Positions 3,912 to 41,403 of a stretch of DNA of 64,000 bases are shown piece after piece. How positions within the stretch are numbered: position 1 is the first letter of the stretch; the number at the start of each line of letters is the position of its first letter. The stretch is from an uncultured Candidatus Berkelbacteria bacterium (GTDB taxonomy: Bacteria; Patescibacteriota; UBA1384; UBA12157; JAENIV01): assembly GCA_963698075.1 (NCBI GenBank), contig OY969116.1:313010-377009 (forward strand). The letters run 5' to 3'. Made by a program: the position numbers and the translations under genes. Below the pieces are notes generated by a model. The model did not search any database. It was not told the origin of the DNA and was given only the letters and a program-made list of their open reading frames with translations.

Positions 3912-5144
3912 TTAGGATGTGGCGATGCTAGCGTGCTCTTCGATACTAGCGTAAGGAAGGAAGGGCTCGACCCACTCCTCGACAGGTCTGGCGTCGAAGA
4001 TATTCCGGCGCAATAGCCGGTTGCCAACGGTTCCGATTGCCTGCTCCATCATCCAGACGGACTGGCGAGTGGCTTCCTCGATCTGCTGGTCAGTCACATA
4101 CTGGTTGATGTAATGGAGCCAGTCGTCCCCGTGGTCTCGCATTGCTGATTCCTTGGCCGCGTAGATCCCCTGTGCCCGGAAGACCGCGCGCTGGATCTCT
4201 TTATTCGCGGGAATCAGGTAATTGATATCACCTCGAGCGTAGGGAACTGCCAGGCGATTTTCATCGACCGTACAGGCGAAATCGCCGAAGCGTCCAGCGG
4301 CTTCCTCGACTTTGCCATCAATGTTGTCGATGCCCGCAGCCCGACAGAACGCGCGTTGATGATGGGCATTGCGCACTAACGTGGCCTGCCAGGCGGTGAA
4401 GGACAGATCGTCGAGATGCATGAAGCGCTGAGCTTCCTCGGGGGTGATGTCCTTATCGCCGGCCGGATCGTACTTTGCGTTGAAACTGATCGCCGGTTCA
4501 TCCATGAGGAATCCAGGGTTCGGAATCCGGTCGAGGTTGGCGTCGGCGAATACCTGCCGCATCTTGGGATCTTCCATGATTCCAGGAATCGCCCGAATCT
4601 CGTCGAGCCCGACGACCGTCTCGTCATAGGTCGCCAACTGCTCATAGCGATTCCCCATGCCCGCGGCGTTGAAGATCCGTTTGAATGTTGAGCTGCCGAG
4701 CGGGAAGCCGAACCGGAAGATGCATTCGGCGTCCGAGACGAAGGTCGTTATATGGCCGGCTGCGATGAGGCGGTGGTAGATGGCGCGGCTCTCGACAGTG
4801 AGAACGTCGCTGAGGATGTATGGGGTGGCCGCCAACCGCATAACCACCTTGTTGCTCTTCTCTCCTCGGTCAAGGAGAGTCCCGACGGTAACGACCTGGT
4901 CGCCATGATCCAGCATGCCGACGTAGGTGCTCCGGAACCCGGCCTTAGCCGCTTCTTCCCAGTAGTATGCCGCGGTCATCGCGAGGACATATCTCTTGCC
5001 ACGTATCTCCTGTGATGGAATCTTCTTCTTGAGATCGGCGACCGAGAAGCGCCCGCTGACGATCCACGGTCCGATGCCCAGGTACCAAAGCCCGGGCGCC
5101 ACGAATTGCGGCCAGGTTGGATCCAAGTCCTTGACGCTACCCAT
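3912..5144 (-). CDS. ATP-dependent purine-pathway-type ligase (PurP/FAICAR-synthetase-like or PurC-like); GC-rich, assignment uncertain
   Basis: 410 aa; segments YVLAMTAAYYWEEAAKAGFRSTYV and GMGNRYEQLATYDE resemble archaeal PurP (TIATLGSH..KGAKxEGFxTV; GARGGRGYFIA). Partial resemblance to SAICAR synthetase also noted. GC about 58% against the low-GC background. Confidence 0.3.
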   Translation of the reverse strand: MGSVKDLDPTWPQFVAPGLWYLGIGPWIVSGRFSVADLKKKIPSQEIRGKRYVLAMTAAYYWEEAAKAGFRSTYVGMLDHGDQVVTVGTLLDRGEKSNKVVMRLAATPYILSDVLTVESRAIYHRLIAAGHITTFVSDAECIFRFGFPLGSSTFKRIFNAAGMGNRYEQLATYDETVVGLDEIRAIPGIMEDPKMRQVFADANLDRIPNPGFLMDEPAISFNAKYDPAGDKDITPEEAQRFMHLDDLSFTAWQATLVRNAHHQRAFCRAAGIDNIDGKVEEAAGRFGDFACTVDENRLAVPYARGDINYLIPANKEIQRAVFRAQGIYAAKESAMRDHGDDWLHYINQYVTDQQIEEATRQSVWMMEQAIGTVGNRLLRRNIFDARPVEEWVEPFLPYASIEEHASIATS

Positions 5145-14756: not shown

Positions 14757-15926
14757 ATGAGAAAATTAAAGATCGGCATTTTTACCGAATGTTATCATCC
14801 GGTACTCAATGGCGTGGTGGTTTCGATTGAAACTTTTCGTCAAGCCCTTGAAAAACGTGGGTTTGAGTTTTTCATTTTCACCACTCAATGTCCGGGTTAT
14901 CACGAAAAAAATGCCCGCGTCAGGCGATTTAACTCAATGATCCCCTTCCCGTCCAAAGGCGGACGTTATCCGATTGCCTGGCCGCAAATCGCCAGATTGC
15001 AAGCCCCACGCATCGCGCCATCAAATCTTGACCTCATTCACAGCCAGCATCTTTTGGGTATTGGTCATTTAGGTCTAAAAGTTGGCAGAATCCTAAAAAT
15101 TCCGACCATCCTCACTTACCACACCCTCTTGGCTGAATACACCCATTACGCGCCCGGAATAGGGGCAATTTTAAAATGGTATCTAATCCATGCCAGCCGA
15201 GAAATTTCCAACCAATACGATCGAATTGTCACCCCTTCACCATCGATGAAAAGGGTTTTACGTTCCTATGGCGTCAGACGTCCAATTGAACCCATCCCTA
15301 CCGGCGTTAATATTGCTGATTTTCAAAATCATTATTCAAAAGAGGAAATCAGAAAAAAATGGCAAATACCCGAGCACCAAAAAATCCTTCTTTACGTCAG
15401 CCGAATCGCCAAAGAAAAAAATCTTGACTTTCTCTTTGAATCTATTGAACGAATAGCTACCAAGCGTGATGATTTTCATCTTTTGATGGTTGGTGGCGGA
15501 CCAGAGCTTAAATACTATCAAGCAAAAATCCACGAGTGGCATCTGAAACCATTCGTCACTTTTACTGGAATGCAACCCAAAAAAGAAGCTAACCGTTTTT
15601 ATGGCGCGGCGGATATCTTTGTCTTCCCCTCAATCACCGAAACCCAAGGAATTGTGGTCACCGAAGCCATGGCTGCCGGTGTGCCGGCAGTGGCTGTCAA
15701 TCAAATGGGACCAAGCGATATTATCCAAGATGGGATTGACGGCTTTCTTGTGCCCTTGAAAACGGATGAATTTACTGCTAAAATAGAACTTCTGCTTGAC
15801 GATGATAACTTAAGAACCAGGATGGGCCGCGAAGCTCGCCAGAACGCTCGTAAGTTCTCAGTCGAAGCTTGCGCCCAGAAAATGGAAAAAATATATGAAA
15901 GAACCATCGATCATCACCGTTCCTAA
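14757..15926 (+). CDS. GT4 family glycosyltransferase
   Basis: ETQGIVVTEAMAAGVPAVAVN (EX7E-type motif) and GT-B layout; SD aaggatggg 5 nt before ATG 14757. Confidence 0.7.
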   Translation: MRKLKIGIFTECYHPVLNGVVVSIETFRQALEKRGFEFFIFTTQCPGYHEKNARVRRFNSMIPFPSKGGRYPIAWPQIARLQAPRIAPSNLDLIHSQHLLGIGHLGLKVGRILKIPTILTYHTLLAEYTHYAPGIGAILKWYLIHASREISNQYDRIVTPSPSMKRVLRSYGVRRPIEPIPTGVNIADFQNHYSKEEIRKKWQIPEHQKILLYVSRIAKEKNLDFLFESIERIATKRDDFHLLMVGGGPELKYYQAKIHEWHLKPFVTFTGMQPKKEANRFYGAADIFVFPSITETQGIVVTEAMAAGVPAVAVNQMGPSDIIQDGIDGFLVPLKTDEFTAKIELLLDDDNLRTRMGREARQNARKFSVEACAQKMEKIYERTIDHHRS

Positions 15927-17433
15927 TGAGAAACTTTCCGAGGCGACAAGTAAAGTCACCTCTTTTGTGCAAGATTCTAATGAGCTTAAAAAACAAATCC
16001 GAAATATGGTGGCAATCCTGCGCCAAGAAGGCGGTATTGGTCTGGCTGCTAACCAATTGGGTTATGATAATCAAGTCCTAGCTATTGAATTTAAGGAATC
16101 TGATCAAAAGTCTTCTAAAAAGTCCTCGAAAAAAAATGCGGAAAAGACGGAAATCCCTTTGACAATTTTTGTAAATCCCGAAATTGTCGAATACGGGAAA
16201 ACAATTGAATGCTTTGAAGAGGGATGTCTTTCGGTGCCTAAAATCGAACTTGAAGTTGAGCGGCCGACCCAAATTAAAATTAAATATCAAAACGAAAAAG
16301 GGAAAAAAATCAAAGCCGCCCCCAAAGGTTTGCTCGCCCGCATCCTTCAGCATGAAATTGATCATCTGGGTGGCATCATCTTTACCGAACGTGTCAGAGA
16401 GCAGTTTTTTCAAAAATACCCAGAGTTGAAAAAACTAAAAATCGCATTTTTCGGTAGCGGAGAGTTTGGGGCTATCATTTTAGAAGGTTTAATCTTACTT
16501 GGGCTGAATCTCGATATCTATACGGAAAAATCAAAACCGGCCGGCCGCAGCCAAGTAACTCGCGCGACGCCCGTGGCAGAAGTGGCTAAAAAGTTTGGAA
16601 AAGATTATTTTGAAGTAGAAGCGAGCCAAGTATCCTCAAAAGTAAATCGCGGAGGCGAGCCGCACGGACAAGGGCGAGCCGAGCGTTTAGACCCGATTTC
16701 CTCGCAGGGGAAATCGAGGTCGGTACTTTTGACGGATGCTGGCGAGCGACCATTTGATTCTCTCGTCTGTGTTGATTTTGGTCAAAAAATCCCCGAATCG
16801 ATATTAAAACAAGCCAAAATTGCCGCCCTCAATATTCATCCCTCGCTTTTACCAAAATATATCGGCCCGACACCAATTCAAACGGCGATACTTAATGGCG
16901 ATAAGAAAACTGGCGTGTCAATTATTCAAATGACCGATAAAATTGATCAAGGCCCGCTTTATTCCCAAATTGAAACGGAAATTCTCGAAAACGATACCAC
17001 ACCCCTTCTCCACGACCGCCTCGCCACTTTGGGTCTAAAATTATTAATCAAAACCTTACCCAAAATCGTCCGTGGCGAAATCGAAACTGTCAGTCAGGAT
17101 TTATCCAAAACGATAAGGACGCGCAAATTCACTAAAGCCAATGGTGAAATTGACTGGCGAAAATCCCCCAAAAAAATTGATGCCAAAATCCGCGCCTTTT
17201 CCCCTTGGCCGGGTTCGTATACCCGCCTGCCAGCGCCTGAAGCCGCAGGCAATGGCGGGCAGGCTTTCGTCGATAATAAACGCCTAATTATCCACAAAGC
17301 TCATATTAAAAAAGACAAATTAGTTCTCGACATAGTTCAGAGTGAGGGCAAAAAACCAATGAAATTTTCTGAATTTTTACGCGGCTTTCACGGTCCAAAA
17401 CCGGAGTGGTTTAGGAAAGTATTATTGACATAA
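15895..17433 (+). CDS. fmt: Peptide deformylase - methionyl-tRNA formyltransferase fusion (single 512-aa ORF)
   Basis: N-terminal GIGLAANQLG, EGCLSVP, QHEIDHLGG (PDF motifs). C-terminal IAFFGSGEFG ... NIHPSLLPKYIGPTPIQ ... WRK..FSPWPG (Fmt). No stop or start between the two parts. Overlaps the upstream GT4 gene by 32 nt. Confidence 0.75.
   Translation: MKEPSIITVPNEKLSEATSKVTSFVQDSNELKKQIRNMVAILRQEGGIGLAANQLGYDNQVLAIEFKESDQKSSKKSSKKNAEKTEIPLTIFVNPEIVEYGKTIECFEEGCLSVPKIELEVERPTQIKIKYQNEKGKKIKAAPKGLLARILQHEIDHLGGIIFTERVREQFFQKYPELKKLKIAFFGSGEFGAIILEGLILLGLNLDIYTEKSKPAGRSQVTRATPVAEVAKKFGKDYFEVEASQVSSKVNRGGEPHGQGRAERLDPISSQGKSRSVLLTDAGERPFDSLVCVDFGQKIPESILKQAKIAALNIHPSLLPKYIGPTPIQTAILNGDKKTGVSIIQMTDKIDQGPLYSQIETEILENDTTPLLHDRLATLGLKLLIKTLPKIVRGEIETVSQDLSKTIRTRKFTKANGEIDWRKSPKKIDAKIRAFSPWPGSYTRLPAPEAAGNGGQAFVDNKRLIIHKAHIKKDKLVLDIVQSEGKKPMKFSEFLRGFHGPKPEWFRKVLLT
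16621..16749. mobile_element. MITE-like element copy 2, 129 bp inserted in-frame within fmt
   Basis: GCGAGCCAAGTATCCTCAAAAGT ... ACTTTTGACGGATGCTGGCGAGCGA. Adds 43 codons (ASQVSSKVNRGGEPHGQGRAERLDPISSQGKSRSVLLTDAGER) between DYFEVE and PFDSLVCVDFG, the position where E. coli Fmt has a short linker. Confidence 0.5.
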
Positions 17434-31886: not shown

Positions 31887-32537
31887 TTAATTCTCCTTTA
31901 TTTCTTTGTCCAATTCTTTGTAAAATTTCAACATAAAATTAGCGCGTTTCTTTGATATTTTTCTAGAAATAGAAAAGTTTAAATTTTCCCATTTTTTGAT
32001 ACCATCTCTGCGAAGCTGATCGAGCAAACTATGGTCAAGCCAGACTTCTTTTGTGTTAGGAACAGATGCCGGATTAAATATTGGAAAACCCATTTCGCCA
32101 AACCAATATGAGAATCTAGCCACGCCAATAGCGCCAATAGCCTCAATCCGATCTGCGTCCTGTATTATTTTTGTTTCAACATGGTCTGTTGGTTCATGAT
32201 CATGGCCCCAAGAAAAATTATCGTGCAAGCGAATAGTTTCGAGAACCTCAGCAATTTTATCTTTTGGAAAACCAACTTCATTAAGCCACTTTTTTGCCAA
32301 TTTCATTCCATAAACTGGGTGGTTCTTAGCATCCTGTTCGTGATTTTTATATCCAACATCATGCAAAAGTGCGCCCGCATAAACAACATCTTTATCGCAT
32401 TTAATATTTTTTGCTATTTTTAATGCGTTTTTTTGCGTGCGTAGATGGTGGTAAAAATCATGACAGGCGGTATATTCATTAAGATAGTTTTTCAGTTTTA
32501 ATGAGAGTTCTTTTTTCCAATGTTTGCTATTTGACAT
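31887..32537 (-). CDS. HD-domain phosphohydrolase
   Basis: H..GALLHDVG ... DAD metal ligands. Confidence 0.6.
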   Translation of the reverse strand: MSNSKHWKKELSLKLKNYLNEYTACHDFYHHLRTQKNALKIAKNIKCDKDVVYAGALLHDVGYKNHEQDAKNHPVYGMKLAKKWLNEVGFPKDKIAEVLETIRLHDNFSWGHDHEPTDHVETKIIQDADRIEAIGAIGVARFSYWFGEMGFPIFNPASVPNTKEVWLDHSLLDQLRRDGIKKWENLNFSISRKISKKRANFMLKFYKELDKEIKEN

Positions 32538-33225
32538 GAGACATTAATTTGATTGATTTATCTTTTTTAGGCAAGCCGCAATTTTTTTCGTCTTCCCAAC
32601 AAATTCCTTCGGTTTTGCAAGTTGGACCGGCATATTTGAAAATTGTCGGAGCAACTTTCATCAATTCTTTATGCATCAAATAAGCCATGCTGCGAATTTC
32701 CCACTGCGCTCGATTACACATTCTTCTTGCCAAAAAATTAAACAATGAACGGGCGTTCATAGTGATAACAATTTTGACATCTGTCGCATTTGGTAAAATA
32801 AAACGAGCGTCTTCTTTTGGAATACCTAAATTAATTAATCTTTCGTAAACCATTCCCAAATTGTAAATCGTATAGTCAAAAAGTTTAAAAGCTTCTTCGT
32901 TGGAACGAATGGTTGGAGGAATAACAAACCCGAAATTTTTTCCGTTGATGTAACGCTGTGATTGTTGCGAATAACTTGCAATTCTATGACGAACTAATTC
33001 ATGAGTTAATACGCGCGATACCTCTTCAACAGCAAAAGTAAAAGAAACGTGTTCAATGGTTGAAGTGTGACCGCCGGCAATAACCATTTTAATTAATTTG
33101 GTTCTTTCTGCTTCAGTTAATTTTTCTTTTATTTGTTCGGCTGAGTTAGGCGAATAACATTGACGAATCGCTGCGGCCACCACTTTTTCGGGATCTTTAG
33201 TGTAGGAAATTAATTTTACTTTCAT
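32527..33225 (-). CDS. thyX: Flavin-dependent thymidylate synthase
   Basis: HELVRHRIASYSQQSQRY (RHR...S.SxR ThyX motif). Confidence 0.85.
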   Translation of the reverse strand: MKVKLISYTKDPEKVVAAAIRQCYSPNSAEQIKEKLTEAERTKLIKMVIAGGHTSTIEHVSFTFAVEEVSRVLTHELVRHRIASYSQQSQRYINGKNFGFVIPPTIRSNEEAFKLFDYTIYNLGMVYERLINLGIPKEDARFILPNATDVKIVITMNARSLFNFLARRMCNRAQWEIRSMAYLMHKELMKVAPTIFKYAGPTCKTEGICWEDEKNCGLPKKDKSIKLMSHVK

Positions 33226-33227
33226 AA

Positions 33228-34466
33228 TTATTTTTTAATCGGAAATTTCTGACAAAGTCTCGAAACTTCTTTTTTGATTTTTTCTTTCGGCATTTCTTGC
33301 TTCAAAGTTACATAAATTAATTCTGCCACTTTTGCCATTTCTTTTTCTTTCATCCCCCGGGTGGTTAAAGTCGGCGTGCCAACTCGAATACCGGAACCAA
33401 TAAACGGCTTTTCCGGGTCGTTGGGAATGGTATTTTTATTAACGACAATCCCTACTTCTTCTAACATATTTTGGGCTTCTTTGCCCTTGATTTTAATGGA
33501 CCGTAGGTCTACGAGCATCAAATGATTATCCGTTCCGCCACTTACTATACGTAGCCCCAGTTTTTGCAAGGCTTTGGCCAACGCTTTGGCATTTTTAACA
33601 ATTTGTCTTGTATAAACTTTAAAATCCGGATCCATGGCTTCGGCGAAACATACCGCCTTTGACGCGATTTGATGTTCATGCGGACCGCCTTGAGAGCCGG
33701 GGAACACCGCCCGATCAACTTGCTCAGCGAATTCCTTGCGAGTAATGATAATGCCCCCACGTGGCCCTCGCAGGGTTTTATGAGTAGTTGTAGTGACAAC
33801 GTCAGCATACGGGAAACACGAAGGATGGACTCCGCCCACAATCAAACCGGCAATGTGAGCGATATCAGCGAATAGAAGCGCGCCAACTGATTTCGCAATT
33901 TCGCCGAACTTTTTAAAATCAATAATTCGCGAATAAGCGGTTGCTCCGCAAACAATCATTTTTGGTTTTTCCCGCTTCGCAATTTTTGCTATCTCATCAT
34001 AGTCCAGTGTTTCTGACTCGGGATCAACACCATAGGCAACAAAATTGTACGCTTTGCCAACTAAACTAATTGGCAGACCGTGTGAAATATGCCCACCTTG
34101 GTCAAGTCGCATTCCCATTATTTTATCGCCGAATTCTAAAAAAGCAAAATAAACCGCAATATTGGCAGGTGTGCCGGAATAGGGCTGAACATTGGCATGC
34201 CATTTTGCGGGCGTTAGTTTAAAAATTTTTAAAACACGTTCTATTGCCAAATCCTCGATTTTGTCAATAATTTTGTTACCGCCATAATATCGGGCGTGTG
34301 GTTTACCTTCGGCATATTTATCGTTAAAAACCGAACCCAGCGCTTCTCGGACTTCGGCGCTGGTAATATTTTCAGAAGGAATTAATTCCAAAACATTTTC
34401 TTGGCGATCCTCTTCGGCCGCAATCAGCTTGGCCACCTTTGGGTCATTTGATTTTAAGCTCATCAT
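33228..34466 (-). CDS. glyA: Serine hydroxymethyltransferase
   Basis: TTTTHKTLRGPRGG PLP-lysine motif; full-length SHMT. Confidence 0.9.
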   Translation of the reverse strand: MMSLKSNDPKVAKLIAAEEDRQENVLELIPSENITSAEVREALGSVFNDKYAEGKPHARYYGGNKIIDKIEDLAIERVLKIFKLTPAKWHANVQPYSGTPANIAVYFAFLEFGDKIMGMRLDQGGHISHGLPISLVGKAYNFVAYGVDPESETLDYDEIAKIAKREKPKMIVCGATAYSRIIDFKKFGEIAKSVGALLFADIAHIAGLIVGGVHPSCFPYADVVTTTTHKTLRGPRGGIIITRKEFAEQVDRAVFPGSQGGPHEHQIASKAVCFAEAMDPDFKVYTRQIVKNAKALAKALQKLGLRIVSGGTDNHLMLVDLRSIKIKGKEAQNMLEEVGIVVNKNTIPNDPEKPFIGSGIRVGTPTLTTRGMKEKEMAKVAELIYVTLKQEMPKEKIKKEVSRLCQKFPIKK

Positions 34467-34990
34467 TGCCTTTCATACTTTTCGATCTTGTCTTCTAAAA
34501 CTCTTAATTTAACTTTGGCCTTTTTAAAAATTCTTCTGGTTTCTTGTCCCGCGTGATACTTTCTTAATGCCACAACTTCTTTAATACCACTATTGACAAT
34601 CATTTTAGCACAGGTTGAACATGGCTCCATCTTAATATAAATTGTTGCGCCCTCTATTGAAGTACCAAATTTAGCCGCTTGACAAATGGCATTTTGTTCG
34701 GCATGAATTGTCCGAACGCAATGTTCGGAAATTTTTCCCTCTTCATCAATGACTTTCCTCATGTCATGACCAACGTCGTCGCAATGGGGTTGACCAATTG
34801 CTGAGCCAACGTAACCGGTTGATAAAATGCGTCGGTCTTTGACAATCACCGCCGCCGATCTACCTCTGTCACAAGTTGACCGGTTGGCAACTGTCTGCAT
34901 CACCGAAATAAAATATTCATCCCAACTCGGCCGTTTGTATTTGACCTTTTTGTCTATTTTCCTTTTTGTCTTTTTATCTCTATTTGGCAT
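34463..34990 (-). CDS. comEB: dCMP deaminase
   Basis: HAEQNAI and PCSTCAK zinc-binding motifs. Confidence 0.8.
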   Translation of the reverse strand: MPNRDKKTKRKIDKKVKYKRPSWDEYFISVMQTVANRSTCDRGRSAAVIVKDRRILSTGYVGSAIGQPHCDDVGHDMRKVIDEEGKISEHCVRTIHAEQNAICQAAKFGTSIEGATIYIKMEPCSTCAKMIVNSGIKEVVALRKYHAGQETRRIFKKAKVKLRVLEDKIEKYERQ

Positions 34991-35561
34991 TGATTTTTCT
35001 CCAAAGTTTTTCCAAATTATCGGCTAATTCTTTTTTTGTTTCTTCATTCACAATCGTATAATCAGCCATGGCGATCGGACCGCCTTTGTTCAAATTTTCC
35101 AGTTCGGCTCGGTCGCGCGCTCTTGCCTCATCTAAACTAAATGAACGATATTTCATCAAAGGATCAGCCCCGTGTTTTCGCGAACGTCCACCAAGTCTTT
35201 TATAGCGCGTTTCCGGGCTCGAGTAAACTGCCAGGCAAATAAAATTTTTGTAGCGTTTTTTAAAGGCTAAATATTCTTCCCACGAATAAAGACCATCAAC
35301 AATAATATCTCCTTTAAGTTTATCAATTTTCGGAAAATTTAAAGTGGCAAACGCAGCCATTCCATATTTTTTTCGGAAACCTTCGCGGATTGGCCGTTCA
35401 TTTTTTTCCGTCGGTTCCAGTCCCCGTCGCTTAACTTCATCTAAAGTGATTTGCCCAAGCCGAATATAACCAAAACCCTTGCGGACAAAAAAATCCGCCA
35501 CTTCACTTTTACCTGCCCCCGGCATGCCGACAATCGCAATAATTTTTCGCATGCTGTTCAT
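34980..35561 (-). CDS. P-loop nucleotide kinase (dephospho-CoA-kinase/adenylate-kinase-like)
   Basis: IVGMPGAGKS Walker A; about 190 aa; embedded in the dNMP metabolism cluster. Confidence 0.4.
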   Translation of the reverse strand: MNSMRKIIAIVGMPGAGKSEVADFFVRKGFGYIRLGQITLDEVKRRGLEPTEKNERPIREGFRKKYGMAAFATLNFPKIDKLKGDIIVDGLYSWEEYLAFKKRYKNFICLAVYSSPETRYKRLGGRSRKHGADPLMKYRSFSLDEARARDRAELENLNKGGPIAMADYTIVNEETKKELADNLEKLWRKINAK

Positions 35562-35983
35562 CTTCTCCCCGTGCTTCCAAAACCTCTTTGCCCTCGCCTA
35601 GAATCGGACAAACTTTTAACTTCTTTTATTTTTGCTCGGATGATTGGTTGGATTAATAATTGAGCAATGCGTTCGCCCTTGCTAATTTTAACTCTTTTTT
35701 TGGATAAATTCCAAAGAGCAATTCCAATCTCTCCACGATAGCCAGCATCAATGACGCCGCCCAAGGAAATTAAACCCTCTTTTGTTGCTAAACCACTTCG
35801 TTCCCAAATTAAGCCGGCGAATTTTTTTGGAATTTCTACAGCTAATCCAGAGCTAAATGTATACCGTTCCCCGGGCTTGAGAATTTTATCTTCGATACTA
35901 TATATATCCATGCCGGCGTCGCCGGCGTGAGAATATTTCGGTAAAATCGCTTTAGATAATAATTTCTTGAATTTGATTAACAC
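35558..35983 (-). CDS. dut: dUTP diphosphatase
   Basis: AGMDIY, GLIWERSGLA, GVIDAGYRGEI, FGSTG dUTPase motifs. Confidence 0.85.
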   Translation of the reverse strand: MLIKFKKLLSKAILPKYSHAGDAGMDIYSIEDKILKPGERYTFSSGLAVEIPKKFAGLIWERSGLATKEGLISLGGVIDAGYRGEIGIALWNLSKKRVKISKGERIAQLLIQPIIRAKIKEVKSLSDSRRGQRGFGSTGRR

Positions 35984-36043: not shown

Positions 36044-36463
36044 ATGAGACCCATTGCTTTTAATCGTCGCGCCTTGCACGACTATCATATTTTGGAAAAA
36101 TTTGAAGCAGGAATCGTTCTCACTGGTGAGGAAATTAAAGCCATCCGCGCCCATCGTGCCAATTTAGCCGGCGCCTTTTGTCGAATCCAACAAAATGAAG
36201 CCTGGATATTAAATCTGCATATTGCCAATACCAAAGAACCAGAACGAACACGAAAACTTTTATTACATAAAAACGAAATCCAATCTCTAATCGGCAAAAC
36301 CCAACAAAAAGGCTTATCGCTAATAGCGCTCTCGCTCTATATCAAAAAAAATCATGCCAAATTAGAACTCGCTCTTGCTCGCGGCAAAAAACTCCACGAC
36401 CGCCGCGAAGAACTCAAAAAACGTGATATCTCGCGCCAGACGGAAAGAGAATTAAAAGAATAG
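36044..36463 (+). CDS. smpB: SsrA-binding protein
   Basis: NRRALHDYHILEKFEAGIVLTGEEIK...HKNEI typical SmpB. Confidence 0.85.
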   Translation: MRPIAFNRRALHDYHILEKFEAGIVLTGEEIKAIRAHRANLAGAFCRIQQNEAWILNLHIANTKEPERTRKLLLHKNEIQSLIGKTQQKGLSLIALSLYIKKNHAKLELALARGKKLHDRREELKKRDISRQTERELKE

Positions 36464-38023: not shown

Positions 38024-38052
38024 TTGACTAGCTATCAAAAAAGTGCTATAAT
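38024..38052 (+). promoter_or_regulatory. Consensus sigma70-like promoter TTGACT-17 bp-TATAAT for ssrA
   Basis: TTGACT 38024-38029, 17-bp spacer, TATAAT 38047-38052, 10 nt upstream of tmRNA 5' end. Confidence 0.5.
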
Positions 38053-38062
38053 TTTAAGCGAT

Positions 38063-38365
38063 GGGGCTATCAAGCTTCGACGGGAAACAATTTGACAATT
38101 TCAAGTCGAGAAGGCTACGAACCTCGCAAAATCCGTGGCAAACACTAAACGCTAACAAGCAATTAGTACCTGCCTTAGCCTAATAGGCTAATGCACGTCG
38201 TTCCATTTGTTGGTTGACCGAATGGAAACGGCGCCAACCGTCAACCTCTGGGGATGGAAGATCGTCCTGGTACTATCCTTGAAACAAACGAGGGCAAATG
38301 CTAAGCTTGTCAACGATTATCAAAGAGTTTTTCGGACGGGAGTGCGATTCTCCCTAGCTCCACCA
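38063..38365 (+). ncRNA. ssrA: tmRNA (ssrA), short form with encoded CCA
   Basis: 5' GGGGCUAUCAAGCUUCGACGGG and 3' GGACGGGAGUGCGAUUCUCCCUAGCUCCACCA match tmRNA tRNA-like-domain consensus. Internal frame gct aac aag caa tta gta cct gcc tta gcc TAA TAG (tag ANKQLVPALA). Confidence 0.8.
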
Positions 38366-38374
38366 TCAAAAAAT

Positions 38375-38398
38375 CACCCTTAAAACGGGTGGTTTTTT
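38375..38398 (+). terminator. Rho-independent terminator after ssrA
   Basis: caccc-ttaaaac-gggtg then gttttttg. Confidence 0.5.
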
Positions 38399-38432
38399 GT
38401 TAAGAAAGAAGGCCCGCCAACATCAGCGAGCC

Positions 38433-38720: not shown

Positions 38721-38826
38721 CTTTGACCTCCAAGAGAAGGTTTGCTATATCATAGTAATATAAAGCTTGAGTGTCAACCCTTGACAAAATGTAAAGTTGA
38801 CTTTACAATGTAGGTGGAGAGGAAAT

Positions 38827-39492
38827 ATGAAAATTTACATTCAACGTATCTCCCGTAGGTTAAGAAGTCTAAGGGAAGAGAAAGATCTCACTCAAGAAGA
38901 GCTTGCCGATCGACTGGGAATATCGAGACAATCGATAATCTCGGTTGAAAAAGGCAAATGTTTACCTTCTCTTCCCTTAGCCCTACGTATTTCGGAAATT
39001 TTTGAAAAATCTTTAGAAGACTTGTTTTTTGGTAATCAAAAAGAGAAAGGAGGTGATAATATGCCACGTTTCCTTATGCCCTGGTCGCCTTTCCGCAGAT
39101 TGGATAATTTTTTCGAGGATGAGGATTCATCGGCTTCCCCGCGATGGCGAGGATTCCAGTTCCCGATGGTTAACGTCAAACAATCTGACAAAGATATCGT
39201 TGTAACGGCTGACATTCCGGGGATCAAAGAAGAGGATGTCAATATTGAGGTTGGCGATACTTTTGTTGATATCTCTGGTGAGCGAAAAGAGGAAACCAAG
39301 AAAGAAGACGAAGGTTATTTCCACCAGGAAGTACGCTACGGTTCCTTTGCCCGACGCATTCCACTCCCGACTGAAGTCAAAGCAGATAAAGCCGACGCCA
39401 CAATCAAAGATGGACAACTGCGAATCACAATTCCCAAGCTCGAACCCGAAAAACCCAAAGTGACCAAAATCAAGGTCAAAAAAGCAAGCTAA
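38827..39492 (+). CDS. XRE-family HTH domain fused in-frame to an Hsp20/alpha-crystallin domain; internal RBS+ATG at 39061
   Basis: LTQEELADRLGISRQSIISVEKG (HTH_XRE) then MPRFLMPWSPFRRLD...VNVKQSDKDIVVTADIPGIKEEDVNIEV...GQLRITIPK (sHSP). AAGGAGGTGA 4 nt before the internal ATG. Upstream TTGACA-17-TACAAT. Confidence 0.6.
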   Translation: MKIYIQRISRRLRSLREEKDLTQEELADRLGISRQSIISVEKGKCLPSLPLALRISEIFEKSLEDLFFGNQKEKGGDNMPRFLMPWSPFRRLDNFFEDEDSSASPRWRGFQFPMVNVKQSDKDIVVTADIPGIKEEDVNIEVGDTFVDISGERKEETKKEDEGYFHQEVRYGSFARRIPLPTEVKADKADATIKDGQLRITIPKLEPEKPKVTKIKVKKAS

Positions 39493-39559
39493 AAATTTTG
39501 TTTGAAAGTCATTTTACCCTTGTTTTAAGATTTAATCTTTGATAATATACAAGATAGAT

Positions 39560-40204
39560 ATGACACCCCAAAAAGAAAGTAAAAAACCCTACATTATCGG
39601 CATTACCGGTGGTACAGCATCAGGAAAAACTTTCGTCATTGAGGCCTTAAAAGATGCTTTCAACGGCAAGATTTTAGTCATTTCCCAAGATCAATATTAC
39701 AAAGGCGAAAGAGTCAAAAGATTTGATCGTTGGGAAAGGGCTAATTTAGACCAACCAAGCGCTTTTGATAATGAGTTGTTAGAAAAGCATCTCCATGATT
39801 TGATTGCCGGAAAAACAGTCCTCGCACCGGTTTATAATTATCAACTTCATCAACAAACCAAAGCCAAAGTGCCGCTTGAGCCCAAACCAGTGATAATCCT
39901 CGAGGGAATCATGATTTTCAATGACGAAAGATTAAGAAATCTCATGGATTGGAAGGTTTATCTTGAAGCCGCCCCGGACATTCGTCTGGCCCGCCGTTTA
40001 CTGCGCGATATTGAAGAGCGGGGCGTTACCATTCAAAACATCCGTTCAACCATTGAATGGTACGTCCAAAACGTCAAACCGATGCATGATAAATATATCC
40101 ATCCGATGAAACAATATGCTGACGCCCGCCTTAACACTGACAAAGGCTCGCTCGAGGCCGCCAACACGGTCAAAGAAAAGGTTAAGGAAATTTTGCGCGC
40201 TTAG
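39560..40204 (+). CDS. udk: Uridine kinase
   Basis: IIGITGGTASGKT P-loop, Udk-like length. Stop TAG 40202-40204 lies inside the tRNA-Val 5' acceptor stem. Confidence 0.8.
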   Translation: MTPQKESKKPYIIGITGGTASGKTFVIEALKDAFNGKILVISQDQYYKGERVKRFDRWERANLDQPSAFDNELLEKHLHDLIAGKTVLAPVYNYQLHQQTKAKVPLEPKPVIILEGIMIFNDERLRNLMDWKVYLEAAPDIRLARRLLRDIEERGVTIQNIRSTIEWYVQNVKPMHDKYIHPMKQYADARLNTDKGSLEAANTVKEKVKEILRA

Positions 40205-40269
40205 CTCAGTGGCAGAGCGTCTCTTTGACGTAGAGAAGGTCACTGGTTCAAGTCCAGTAGCGCGCACCA
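40195..40269 (+). tRNA. tRNA-Val (anticodon GAC) with encoded CCA
   Basis: Hand-folded cloverleaf: acceptor gcgcgct/agcgcgc, anticodon arm tctct-ttgacgt-agaga, T-arm actgg-ttcaagt-ccagt. Confidence 0.9.
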
Positions 40270-40335: not shown

Positions 40336-41403
40336 CTATTCTTCGAACTCGATTTCGCGGACCGCCTTTCCCGAGGCCTTGACGATACCAAGACCATGCG
40401 TTTCCCCATAGCCACCTTTCTTGACGACGACGGTGTGGATGCTTGAACCAGCAATGAGCTTAGCGCAACTCAGACAGGGTATGGAGTTGACGTAAATGGT
40501 GGTGCCGGCGACCGGGATCCCGACATTGGCCGCCGTCAGAAACGCCATTTCTTCAGCATGAATCGCTCGACAAACCTCAAGCATTTGTCCCGACGGGATG
40601 CCTCTTTCATCCCTTTCGCAGCCCACGTCGGCACAAAGTTCCGAACCGGGATATTGGCCATTGAAACCTGTCGCAATCACCCTCAGCTCCTCGGGGATGG
40701 CAATCACGCAGCCGTATCGCCGGGTCTGACCCACGAGATATCCCTGTTCGTCTCGAGGGAAACTACCATCAGCAGCACGCTGACAACCCCTAACGCAATT
40801 AGAAAGCCGAGAGGTGGCCACGACAATCCCCATGAAGTAGCGATCCCGGCGAGCAATCTCTCTTTGGTATTCTTCAGTACCGAGACCAACGCCTGTCAAA
40901 CCCGTCGAACCAAATCCACCTATCCCCCTCATTGTTGGTGGTAACTCCTCTGCTGTCGCCACCTCAAGCAGATCAGGAATTTCCACCTGTGAAAAGATAA
41001 GCTGAGCAACACGCATCTCAGGCTCGATGGTAAACGGCTGACGGCCACGGTTAACCAAGAGACACCCCGCCTCGCCGCGGAAGTCCGGATCAATCGTTCC
41101 AGGACTGTTTCCCAGTTCAATTCGGTGCTTGGTTGCCAAACCGCTTCGCGGTCGCACTTCAACCTGGTGACCCCAGGGAAGAGCCATCGCAAAGCCAACA
41201 CCAATCAAAATGGCATCGTCAGGAAGAATTGTTACTGGTAGTTCCTCTCTCACTTCTCGTGTGTTTGGATCAAGAACTCGAGAGGCAAAGACATCATAGC
41301 CGATAGCCCCGGGGCTTGCCCTCACTGGCAACCGAGCATCAGGACGAACCTTCCAAACTCGAATACTTCCCAGCACTTCCGGCATCTTCCTTCCTCCACT
41401 CAA
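40336..41403 (-). CDS. Bifunctional dUTPase - dCMP deaminase fusion, GC-rich
   Basis: N-terminal GAIGYDV ... RSGLA ... GTIDPDFRGE ... GFGSTG (dUTPase). C-terminal HAEEMAF ... PCLSCAKL (cytidine/dCMP deaminase zinc motifs). GC far above background. Confidence 0.7.
   Translation of the reverse strand: MSGGRKMPEVLGSIRVWKVRPDARLPVRASPGAIGYDVFASRVLDPNTREVREELPVTILPDDAILIGVGFAMALPWGHQVEVRPRSGLATKHRIELGNSPGTIDPDFRGEAGCLLVNRGRQPFTIEPEMRVAQLIFSQVEIPDLLEVATAEELPPTMRGIGGFGSTGLTGVGLGTEEYQREIARRDRYFMGIVVATSRLSNCVRGCQRAADGSFPRDEQGYLVGQTRRYGCVIAIPEELRVIATGFNGQYPGSELCADVGCERDERGIPSGQMLEVCRAIHAEEMAFLTAANVGIPVAGTTIYVNSIPCLSCAKLIAGSSIHTVVVKKGGYGETHGLGIVKASGKAVREIEFEE

Follow-up and report, generated by a model that had tools for sequence, protein, structure and literature searches.

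The closest described systems are the standard one-piece tmRNAs of Rfam family RF00023, exemplified by the 363-nt SsrA of Escherichia coli. They combine an acceptor stem carrying a G3-U70 pair and a terminal ACCA with a stemless D-loop followed by UCGAC, a long helix 2 and a T arm, and they have SmpB as their protein partner. PK1 lies just 5' of the resume codon, the ten-codon tag starts with Ala-Asn, the stop codon sits in the loop of helix 5, and PK2, PK3 and a large PK4 complete the E. coli molecule. G3-U70 is the identity pair for alanine, and in E. coli the resume codon GCA is preceded by the context U-A-G-U-C. In tRNA, the elbow is held by the contacts G18-Psi55 and G19-C56. The ssrA tags of Mesoplasma and Mycoplasma end in ...A-F-A and are degraded by Lon, not by ClpXP.

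Departures from this plan are documented. Functional tmRNAs range from 250 to 425 nt and vary in pseudoknot number (PMC1168896). Burks et al. (2005) described Rickettsia-group tmRNAs without pk2, cyanobacterial forms without pseudoknots, and alphaproteobacterial tmRNAs in which pk4 is reduced to one helix (PMC1168896). The same work records a G at the second T-loop position for Caulobacter crescentus and for a mitochondrial tmRNA (PMC1168896). The 2025 tmRNA database holds 97,179 sequences (PMC11915505); our search of the literature on tmRNA in CPR bacteria returned nothing specific.

The ssrA gene analyzed here lies in a 64-kb stretch of DNA (64,000 nt, hereafter the window), which is cellular DNA of Candidatus Berkelbacteria (Patescibacteria/CPR) and not viral. 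The gene follows the E. coli plan from the acceptor stem to PK3. Unlike E. coli SsrA, it has 10 nt in place of the large PK4 and a tag ending in ...PALA instead of ...ALAA, and it departs from standard tmRNAs in its T-loop (UGCGAUU versus UUCRANU) and D-loop (AG versus GG). Like the reduced tmRNAs of Burks et al., it has fewer pseudoknots and keeps the tRNA-like domain, PK1 and the tag frame. However, the reduced forms of alphaproteobacteria and some of those of cyanobacteria are two-piece (permuted), whereas the window tmRNA is one-piece, and it has lost PK4 altogether, where alphaproteobacteria keep one helix of it. The tmRNA of Caulobacter crescentus shares the U-to-G change at the second T-loop position but is two-piece. 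The tags of Mesoplasma and Mycoplasma share the C-terminal A-x-A with the window tag but are much longer (about 27 residues).

Identification of ssrA, its partner gene and its expression signals

A first-pass annotation, made from the sequence alone, had proposed a 303-nt tmRNA with perfect tRNA-like-domain ends. The same gene was called by ARAGORN (38063-38365 on the plus strand, 303 nt, tag ANKQLVPALA followed by two stops, coding part at gene positions 89-124) and by the Rfam model RF00023, which aligned over identical limits from model position 1 to 374, not truncated, and scored 114.5 bits (E = 5.4e-44), the gathering score being 47 bits (Table 1). The ends were reproduced as a 7-bp acceptor stem with G3-U70, then ACCA. 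In all 16 sequences compared, namely the window gene and 15 relatives, the third pair of this stem is G-U, and the seventh pair shows compensatory G-C/A-U changes among them. The CCA is encoded in the window gene and is not encoded in two relatives (L201 and L204). Apart from the T-loop, which departs from the consensus at one position, and a count of four pseudoknots, which is typical of the family and not required, the testable defining features of a tmRNA are present. We put at roughly 95% the probability that 38063-38365 is a genuine, functional one-piece tmRNA gene, whose product would work in trans-translation with the SmpB encoded 1.6 kb upstream; no finding spoke against this reading. 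The gene is of a known kind, and routine annotation would find it.

The position of smpB 1.6 kb upstream, also proposed earlier, was borne out by the PF01668 match, smpB ending exactly 1,600 nt ahead of the first base of ssrA. The encoded protein aligns over residues 3-137 with solved SmpB structures (E = 8e-36), the basic C-terminal tail included. A 929-kb NCBI contig encodes a protein of identical sequence (100%), and the named relatives of this SmpB come from Candidatus Berkelbacteria or Patescibacteria group bacteria.

The TTGACT-17-TATAAT promoter of the first-pass annotation was recovered by a consensus scan with a match at 11 of 12 positions and a TG preceding the -10 element; the -10 hexamer (TATAAT, 38047-38052) ends 10 nt before the mature 5' end. 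With 3.9 promoter-like sites expected in 2.5 kb, the scan yielded seven, so the match carries little weight by itself. The position recurs, however: in approximately 14 of the 16 related genes, a TTGA-type -35 and a TAnAAT-type -10 element, often with TG, end about 9-11 nt upstream of the mature 5' G. The sequence between the two elements is unconserved among the relatives. The intrinsic terminator noted after ssrA was likewise confirmed, with a fold of 38367-38399 at -16.5 kcal/mol (z = -6.3) that none of 200 shuffles equaled in stability. It was also picked up on the minus strand by the scan, and the A-tract at 38368-38373 could let it act in both directions. By eye, a hairpin followed by a T-run is present downstream of ssrA in most relatives.

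Table 1 Coordinates of smpB, ssrA and the elements of the tmRNA in the window. Helix limits in brackets are gene positions.
Feature	Position	Strand	Details
smpB, SsrA-binding protein	36044-36463	+	139 aa; PF01668, E 6.2e-51, full profile
Putative sigma-70-type promoter	38024-38052	+	-35 TTGACT 38024-38029, 17-nt spacer, extended -10 TGcTATAAT
ssrA, one-piece tmRNA	38063-38365	+	303 nt, CCA encoded; ARAGORN, RF00023, covariation with relatives
Acceptor stem, 5' strand GGGGCUA	38063-38069	+	pairs with UAGCUCC 38355-38361; 7 pairs
D-loop AG for usual GG	38073-38074	+	A11 and G12 invariant in 16/16
PK1	38107-38139	+	helix 3 (45-48 / 61-64), helix 4 (52-57 / 72-77)
Tag frame	38151-38186	+	resume codon GCU 38151-38153, ANKQLVPALA, then UAA UAG; ARAGORN, CM alignment
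Helix 5 hairpin	38171-38195	+	loop UAAUA with stop codon; CM alignment, MFE fold
PK2	38196-38246	+	helix 6 (134-145 / 159-171), helix 7 (150-156 / 178-184)
PK3	38251-38295	+	helix 8 (189-195 / 211-217), helix 9 (202-206 / 229-233)
T arm	38338-38354	+	5-bp stem (276-280 / 288-292), loop UGCGAUU 38343-38349
Discriminator A and CCA	38362-38365	+	ACCA after acceptor stem
Intrinsic terminator	38367-38399	+	core CACCC/GGGUG 38375-38391, U6 38393-38398, A-tract 38368-38373

Tag reading frame and resume codon

The internal reading frame is short, has no start codon and runs from the resume codon to the stop presented in helix 5. It reads GCU AAC AAG CAA UUA GUA CCU GCC UUA GCC UAA UAG, with UAA at 38181-38183 and UAG at 38184-38186. 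The consensus resume codon GCa of RF00023 is aligned on GCU 38151-38153, and the covariance model thereby comes out in favor of the first-pass annotation and does not place the resume codon elsewhere. The upstream context UAAAC stands at a spacing from GCU equal to that of UAGUC in E. coli, and the A at -4, the A at -3 and the C at -1 of the resume codon are invariant in all 16 sequences. As the alanine carried by the tmRNA precedes the alanine encoded by GCU, the full appendage would be AANKQLVPALA. The earlier rendering of the tag as (A)NKQLVPALA therefore holds only if the bracketed A denotes the GCU-encoded alanine, the encoded tag being ANKQLVPALA. The TAA TAG reported after the tag is present as a double stop in both the ARAGORN call and the CM alignment; it is not conserved, as the closest relative, L201, has UAA UCG.

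Close relatives differ little in the tag. L201 and L204, whose SmpB proteins are 96% and 88% identical to that of the window, encode the same tag with a synonymous GUA/GUU change, and L002 and L010 differ at four synonymous and no non-synonymous sites across 10 shared codons. Such synonymous-only change points to coding constraint on the tag. Across the 16 Berkelbacteria-type tmRNAs, every tag has 10 or 12 residues and ends in A-[L/F/V/Y/T]-A; examples from relatives are AKPNLAPALA, AKANLAPAFA and AKPNLAPALALA. At the place of the resume codon, the alignment has AAC in L004 and GAA in L116 and L168. Among the ORFs scanned within the window, no Clp, Lon or FtsH gene and no tag-specific protease gene was found.

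Secondary structure and absence of PK4

The secondary structure of the window gene was drawn up from the model alignment together with inspection, and base pairs were counted on the 16-sequence alignment A3. Standard pairs occupy 89.3% of cells versus 76.7% in shuffles, and pairing falls to 39-50% when the partner columns are slid. In total, 44 of the 83 pairs show changes on both sides. The long-range helix 2 (2a-2d), which links the tRNA-like domain with the ring of pseudoknots, is 77-100% paired; 2a and 2b show compensatory changes, and 2d is invariant. In PK1, which adjoins the resume codon on its 5' side, helix 3 is invariant, and helix 4 has changed on both sides in four of six pairs with 94.8% of cells paired. 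Both-side changes are found in 10 of 12 pairs of helix 6 and six of seven pairs of helix 7 in PK2 (about 91% of cells paired), and in all seven pairs of helix 8 and three of five pairs of helix 9 in PK3. The T-arm stem is compensatory in all five pairs. The columns of helix 5 in A3 (helices 7-8 of the count) are misaligned by indels in tag length. Covariation thus supports the acceptor stem, helix 2, PK1, PK2, PK3 and the T arm.

The pseudoknot complement, flagged earlier as a point to check, consists of the covariation-supported PK1-PK3, and PK4 is absent, which leaves the set of four incomplete. Between helix 9 and the 3' strand of helix 2d there are just 10 nt, and in the RF00023 alignment 51 model positions after PK3 are replaced by 3 nt. 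The compactness of the molecule is therefore the absence of PK4.

Coupled variation of the T-loop and D-loop

The T-loop UGCGAUU keeps the 7-nt size of the consensus UUCRANU and has G for the second U. This G lies at 38344, the position of U55 in tRNA and of U342 in E. coli tmRNA, where most tmRNAs also have U, and both it (G282 of the gene) and the following C283 are invariant in all 16 sequences. Within the genome sample, the UGC T-loop occurs together with D-loop AG in 10 of 10 cases (nine Berkelbacteria tmRNAs and L064 from another CPR lineage), and the UUC T-loop together with D-loop GG in 17 of 17 (15 tmRNAs of other phyla and the other CPR sequences L029 and L078). A metagenome scan conditioned on the UGC T-loop returned at least 120 contigs, and 83 complete tmRNAs were delimited among the matches listed. 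D-loop GG is lacking in 81 of these 83 listed tmRNAs, which comprise the compact Berkelbacteria types, long CPR types (380-416 nt, with tags of 20-30 residues) and a soil group of 58-63% GC with classic ...LALAA tags.

Taken alone, the AG/UGC pair could suggest a damaged tRNA-like domain, yet it is fixed in all 16 sequences and in many other tmRNAs. Judged by analogy with tRNA, it looks like a coupled swap in which an A-G contact takes the place of the G18-Psi55-type contact and the G19-C56-type pair is kept. We considered the T-loop G as a novelty of Berkelbacteria and rejected this, with UGC found in at least 120 metagenome contigs that include the soil and long CPR types. Because such a G has already been recorded (PMC1168896), we treat it as a known variant and not as a discovery. 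AG and UGC change together in several unrelated groups, a covariation that may so far be undescribed; nothing specific was found in the literature on T-loop/D-loop contacts in tmRNA. As a clean natural example of covariation in what looks like a tertiary contact, it might be of use to structural RNA workers. In L205 the T-loop reads AGCAUUA, apparently with the usual U54 and A58 exchanged for A and U, possibly a second compensated tertiary pair.

Comparison with related tmRNAs

The 15 related tmRNAs were collected by a scan of a genome collection with an SmpB alignment, by contig look-ups for close SmpB homologues and by the metagenome scan; ARAGORN, Rfam and an nhmmer profile built from alignment A2 served to locate them. 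Most of them lie within a few kilobases of smpB. Their lengths are 302-329 nt in 13 of 15; the other two measure 349 and 359 nt and contain an extra inserted hairpin. For comparison, tmRNAs of other phyla in the same scan span 342-376 nt (n = 15), and those of other CPR lineages 388-423 nt (n = 3). The first-pass annotation had remarked on the shortness of the gene and on a tag ending in LA instead of LAA. Both observations stand, the gene being about 50-60 nt below the usual length, but neither marks a peculiarity: compact size is common to all 16 Berkelbacteria-type tmRNAs, and A-x-A closes the tags of all 16, the window included. Both are hence traits of the lineage and not oddities of the window gene.

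The loci L205 (8705-9063) and L006 (3974-4322) carry a similar hairpin insert of about 36 nt with the core GCTCAGGRTTAYCCTGAG, but not at the same site: that of L205 lies within PK1, and that of L006 directly follows the stop codon. This core was found neither in any other of the 207 loci fetched nor in the window, and the insert may be a small mobile hairpin. ARAGORN missed or mis-read three of nine Berkelbacteria tmRNAs, all of which the Rfam model found: it missed L004 (12179-12493) and L009 (13066-13372) and gave an implausible tag for L008 (2746-3067), and RF00023 scored these three at 114-120 bits.

Genomic context

The window encodes PriA, a deformylase-formyltransferase fusion, a class II aminoacyl-tRNA synthetase, RNase Y and ribosomal protein S16 (Pfam/NCBIfam), as well as signal peptidase I, ABC transporters and 12 tRNAs. 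The gene order smpB, methyltransferase, CHAP-domain protein, ssrA, HTH-Hsp20 fusion is common to close relatives, and the orientation of ssrA relative to smpB differs among relatives. No repeat of the ssrA 3' end was found anywhere in the window with three mismatches allowed, and no integrase was seen adjoining ssrA; the locus therefore gives no sign of an island inserted at ssrA.

Discussion

Several features of the gene could be read differently. Its 303 nt against 342-376 nt in the 15 tmRNAs of other phyla, the 51 missing model positions and the G at the U55 position might reflect erosion, with PK4 lost and the T- and D-loops altered in a decaying or non-functional ssrA relic of a reduced genome. 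This is very improbable, given that 16 diverged relatives preserve the architecture and show compensatory changes in each helix that could be tested, that the tag is under coding constraint, and that the promoter, the terminator and an intact smpB are retained. Close relatives show no frame-breaking or stem-breaking changes, and lineages naturally without some pseudoknots are documented (PMC1168896). The choice of GCU as resume codon also deserves scrutiny: L004 has AAC aligned with GCU, giving NKSAYTPALALA, and an Asn-first frame thus exists in the lineage. If translation in the window tmRNA resumed at AAC, one codon later, the alanine carried by the tmRNA would be the sole leading alanine. 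We consider such a resume point unlikely, as both ARAGORN and the CM alignment select GCU, the spacing between U-A-A-A-C and GCU matches that of E. coli, and positions -4, -3 and -1 are invariant in all 16 sequences.

Mobile elements commonly integrate at tmRNA genes, and there are phages with a tmRNA of their own. At first glance, the 12 tRNAs together with ThyX, SHMT, dCMP deaminase and dUTPase in the window recall large phages, and 2 kb downstream, where GC is higher, there is a second dUTPase-deaminase fusion, as might be expected if the ssrA copy had been carried or duplicated by an integrated mobile element or phage. The locus nevertheless stands amid housekeeping genes, the smpB-methyltransferase-CHAP-ssrA-HTH/Hsp20 synteny is found in relatives too, and the ssrA 3' end has neither a repeat in the window nor a neighboring integrase. 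Housekeeping genes, synteny and the absence of a 3'-end repeat in the window led us to reject a phage or mobile-element origin of ssrA, to which we give next to no probability.

With a functional cellular tmRNA gene as the preferred reading, a course of action can be proposed; the sequence, structure, covariation, tag constraint and partner gene were established here, and the activity steps follow from knowledge of the family. Transcription would start from the gene's own sigma-70-type promoter, which has an extended -10 element. RNase P would remove a leader of a few nucleotides, and the 3' trailer would be trimmed to the encoded CCA. AlaRS would then charge the tmRNA with alanine by way of G3-U70, and SmpB and EF-Tu would bring it to the vacant A site of a ribosome that has stalled where a broken mRNA ends. 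After transfer of the nascent chain onto the alanine, the ribosome would switch template to GCU 38151, add ANKQLVPALA and terminate at UAA, with UAG as an in-frame backup stop. The ribosome would be freed, and the protein ending in AANKQLVPALA would be passed to a protease.

A CPR bacterium thus keeps the tmRNA-SmpB rescue system, which beyond correct annotation matters little. The Berkelbacteria tmRNAs are among the more compact one-piece forms, with about 302-329 nt, three pseudoknots and A-x-A tags. A bolder and doubtful proposal is that Berkelbacteria have minimized trans-translation by combining a three-pseudoknot tmRNA, an A-G elbow contact and a ...P-A-[LFV]-A tag read by a protease other than ClpXP. 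If so, the A-G elbow would replace the near-universal G18-Psi55 contact, with no TruB pseudouridine at that place and a UGNRA-type T-loop, and the tag protease could be, for example, Lon or FtsH. The literature on Clp and Lon in Patescibacteria yielded nothing specific on this point.

Further features of the window

Downstream of ssrA, an XRE-type helix-turn-helix is fused to an Hsp20/alpha-crystallin domain (38797-39492, plus strand), and the same fusion lies near ssrA in L201, L204 and L205. The ORF of a uridine kinase (PRK family, 39539-40204) overlaps the start of tRNA-Val(gac) (40195-40269) by 10 nt. Past this tRNA, a stretch of 47-48% GC contains a 355-aa dUTPase-dCMP deaminase fusion (40336-41403, minus strand). 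A separate dUTPase (35558-35983) and dCMP deaminase (34463-34990) are encoded upstream of smpB, and the fusion may be a horizontally acquired second copy. A 410-aa ORF (3912-5144, minus strand) with no Pfam match lies in a segment of 54% GC, in a window that is mostly 38-44% GC. The peptide deformylase is fused to methionyl-tRNA formyltransferase, with N- and C-terminal formyltransferase domains, in a 512-aa product (15895-17433, plus strand). The 12 tRNA genes of the 64 kb are mostly clustered at 49.9-63.3 kb. The type of thymidylate synthase encoded at one and the same position varies among close relatives: it is ThyX in the window (32527-33225), L203, L205 and L207, in L201 ThyX is contained in a longer 537-aa product, and L204 (3346-4819) and L206 (3457-4912) have ThyA plus DHFR instead.
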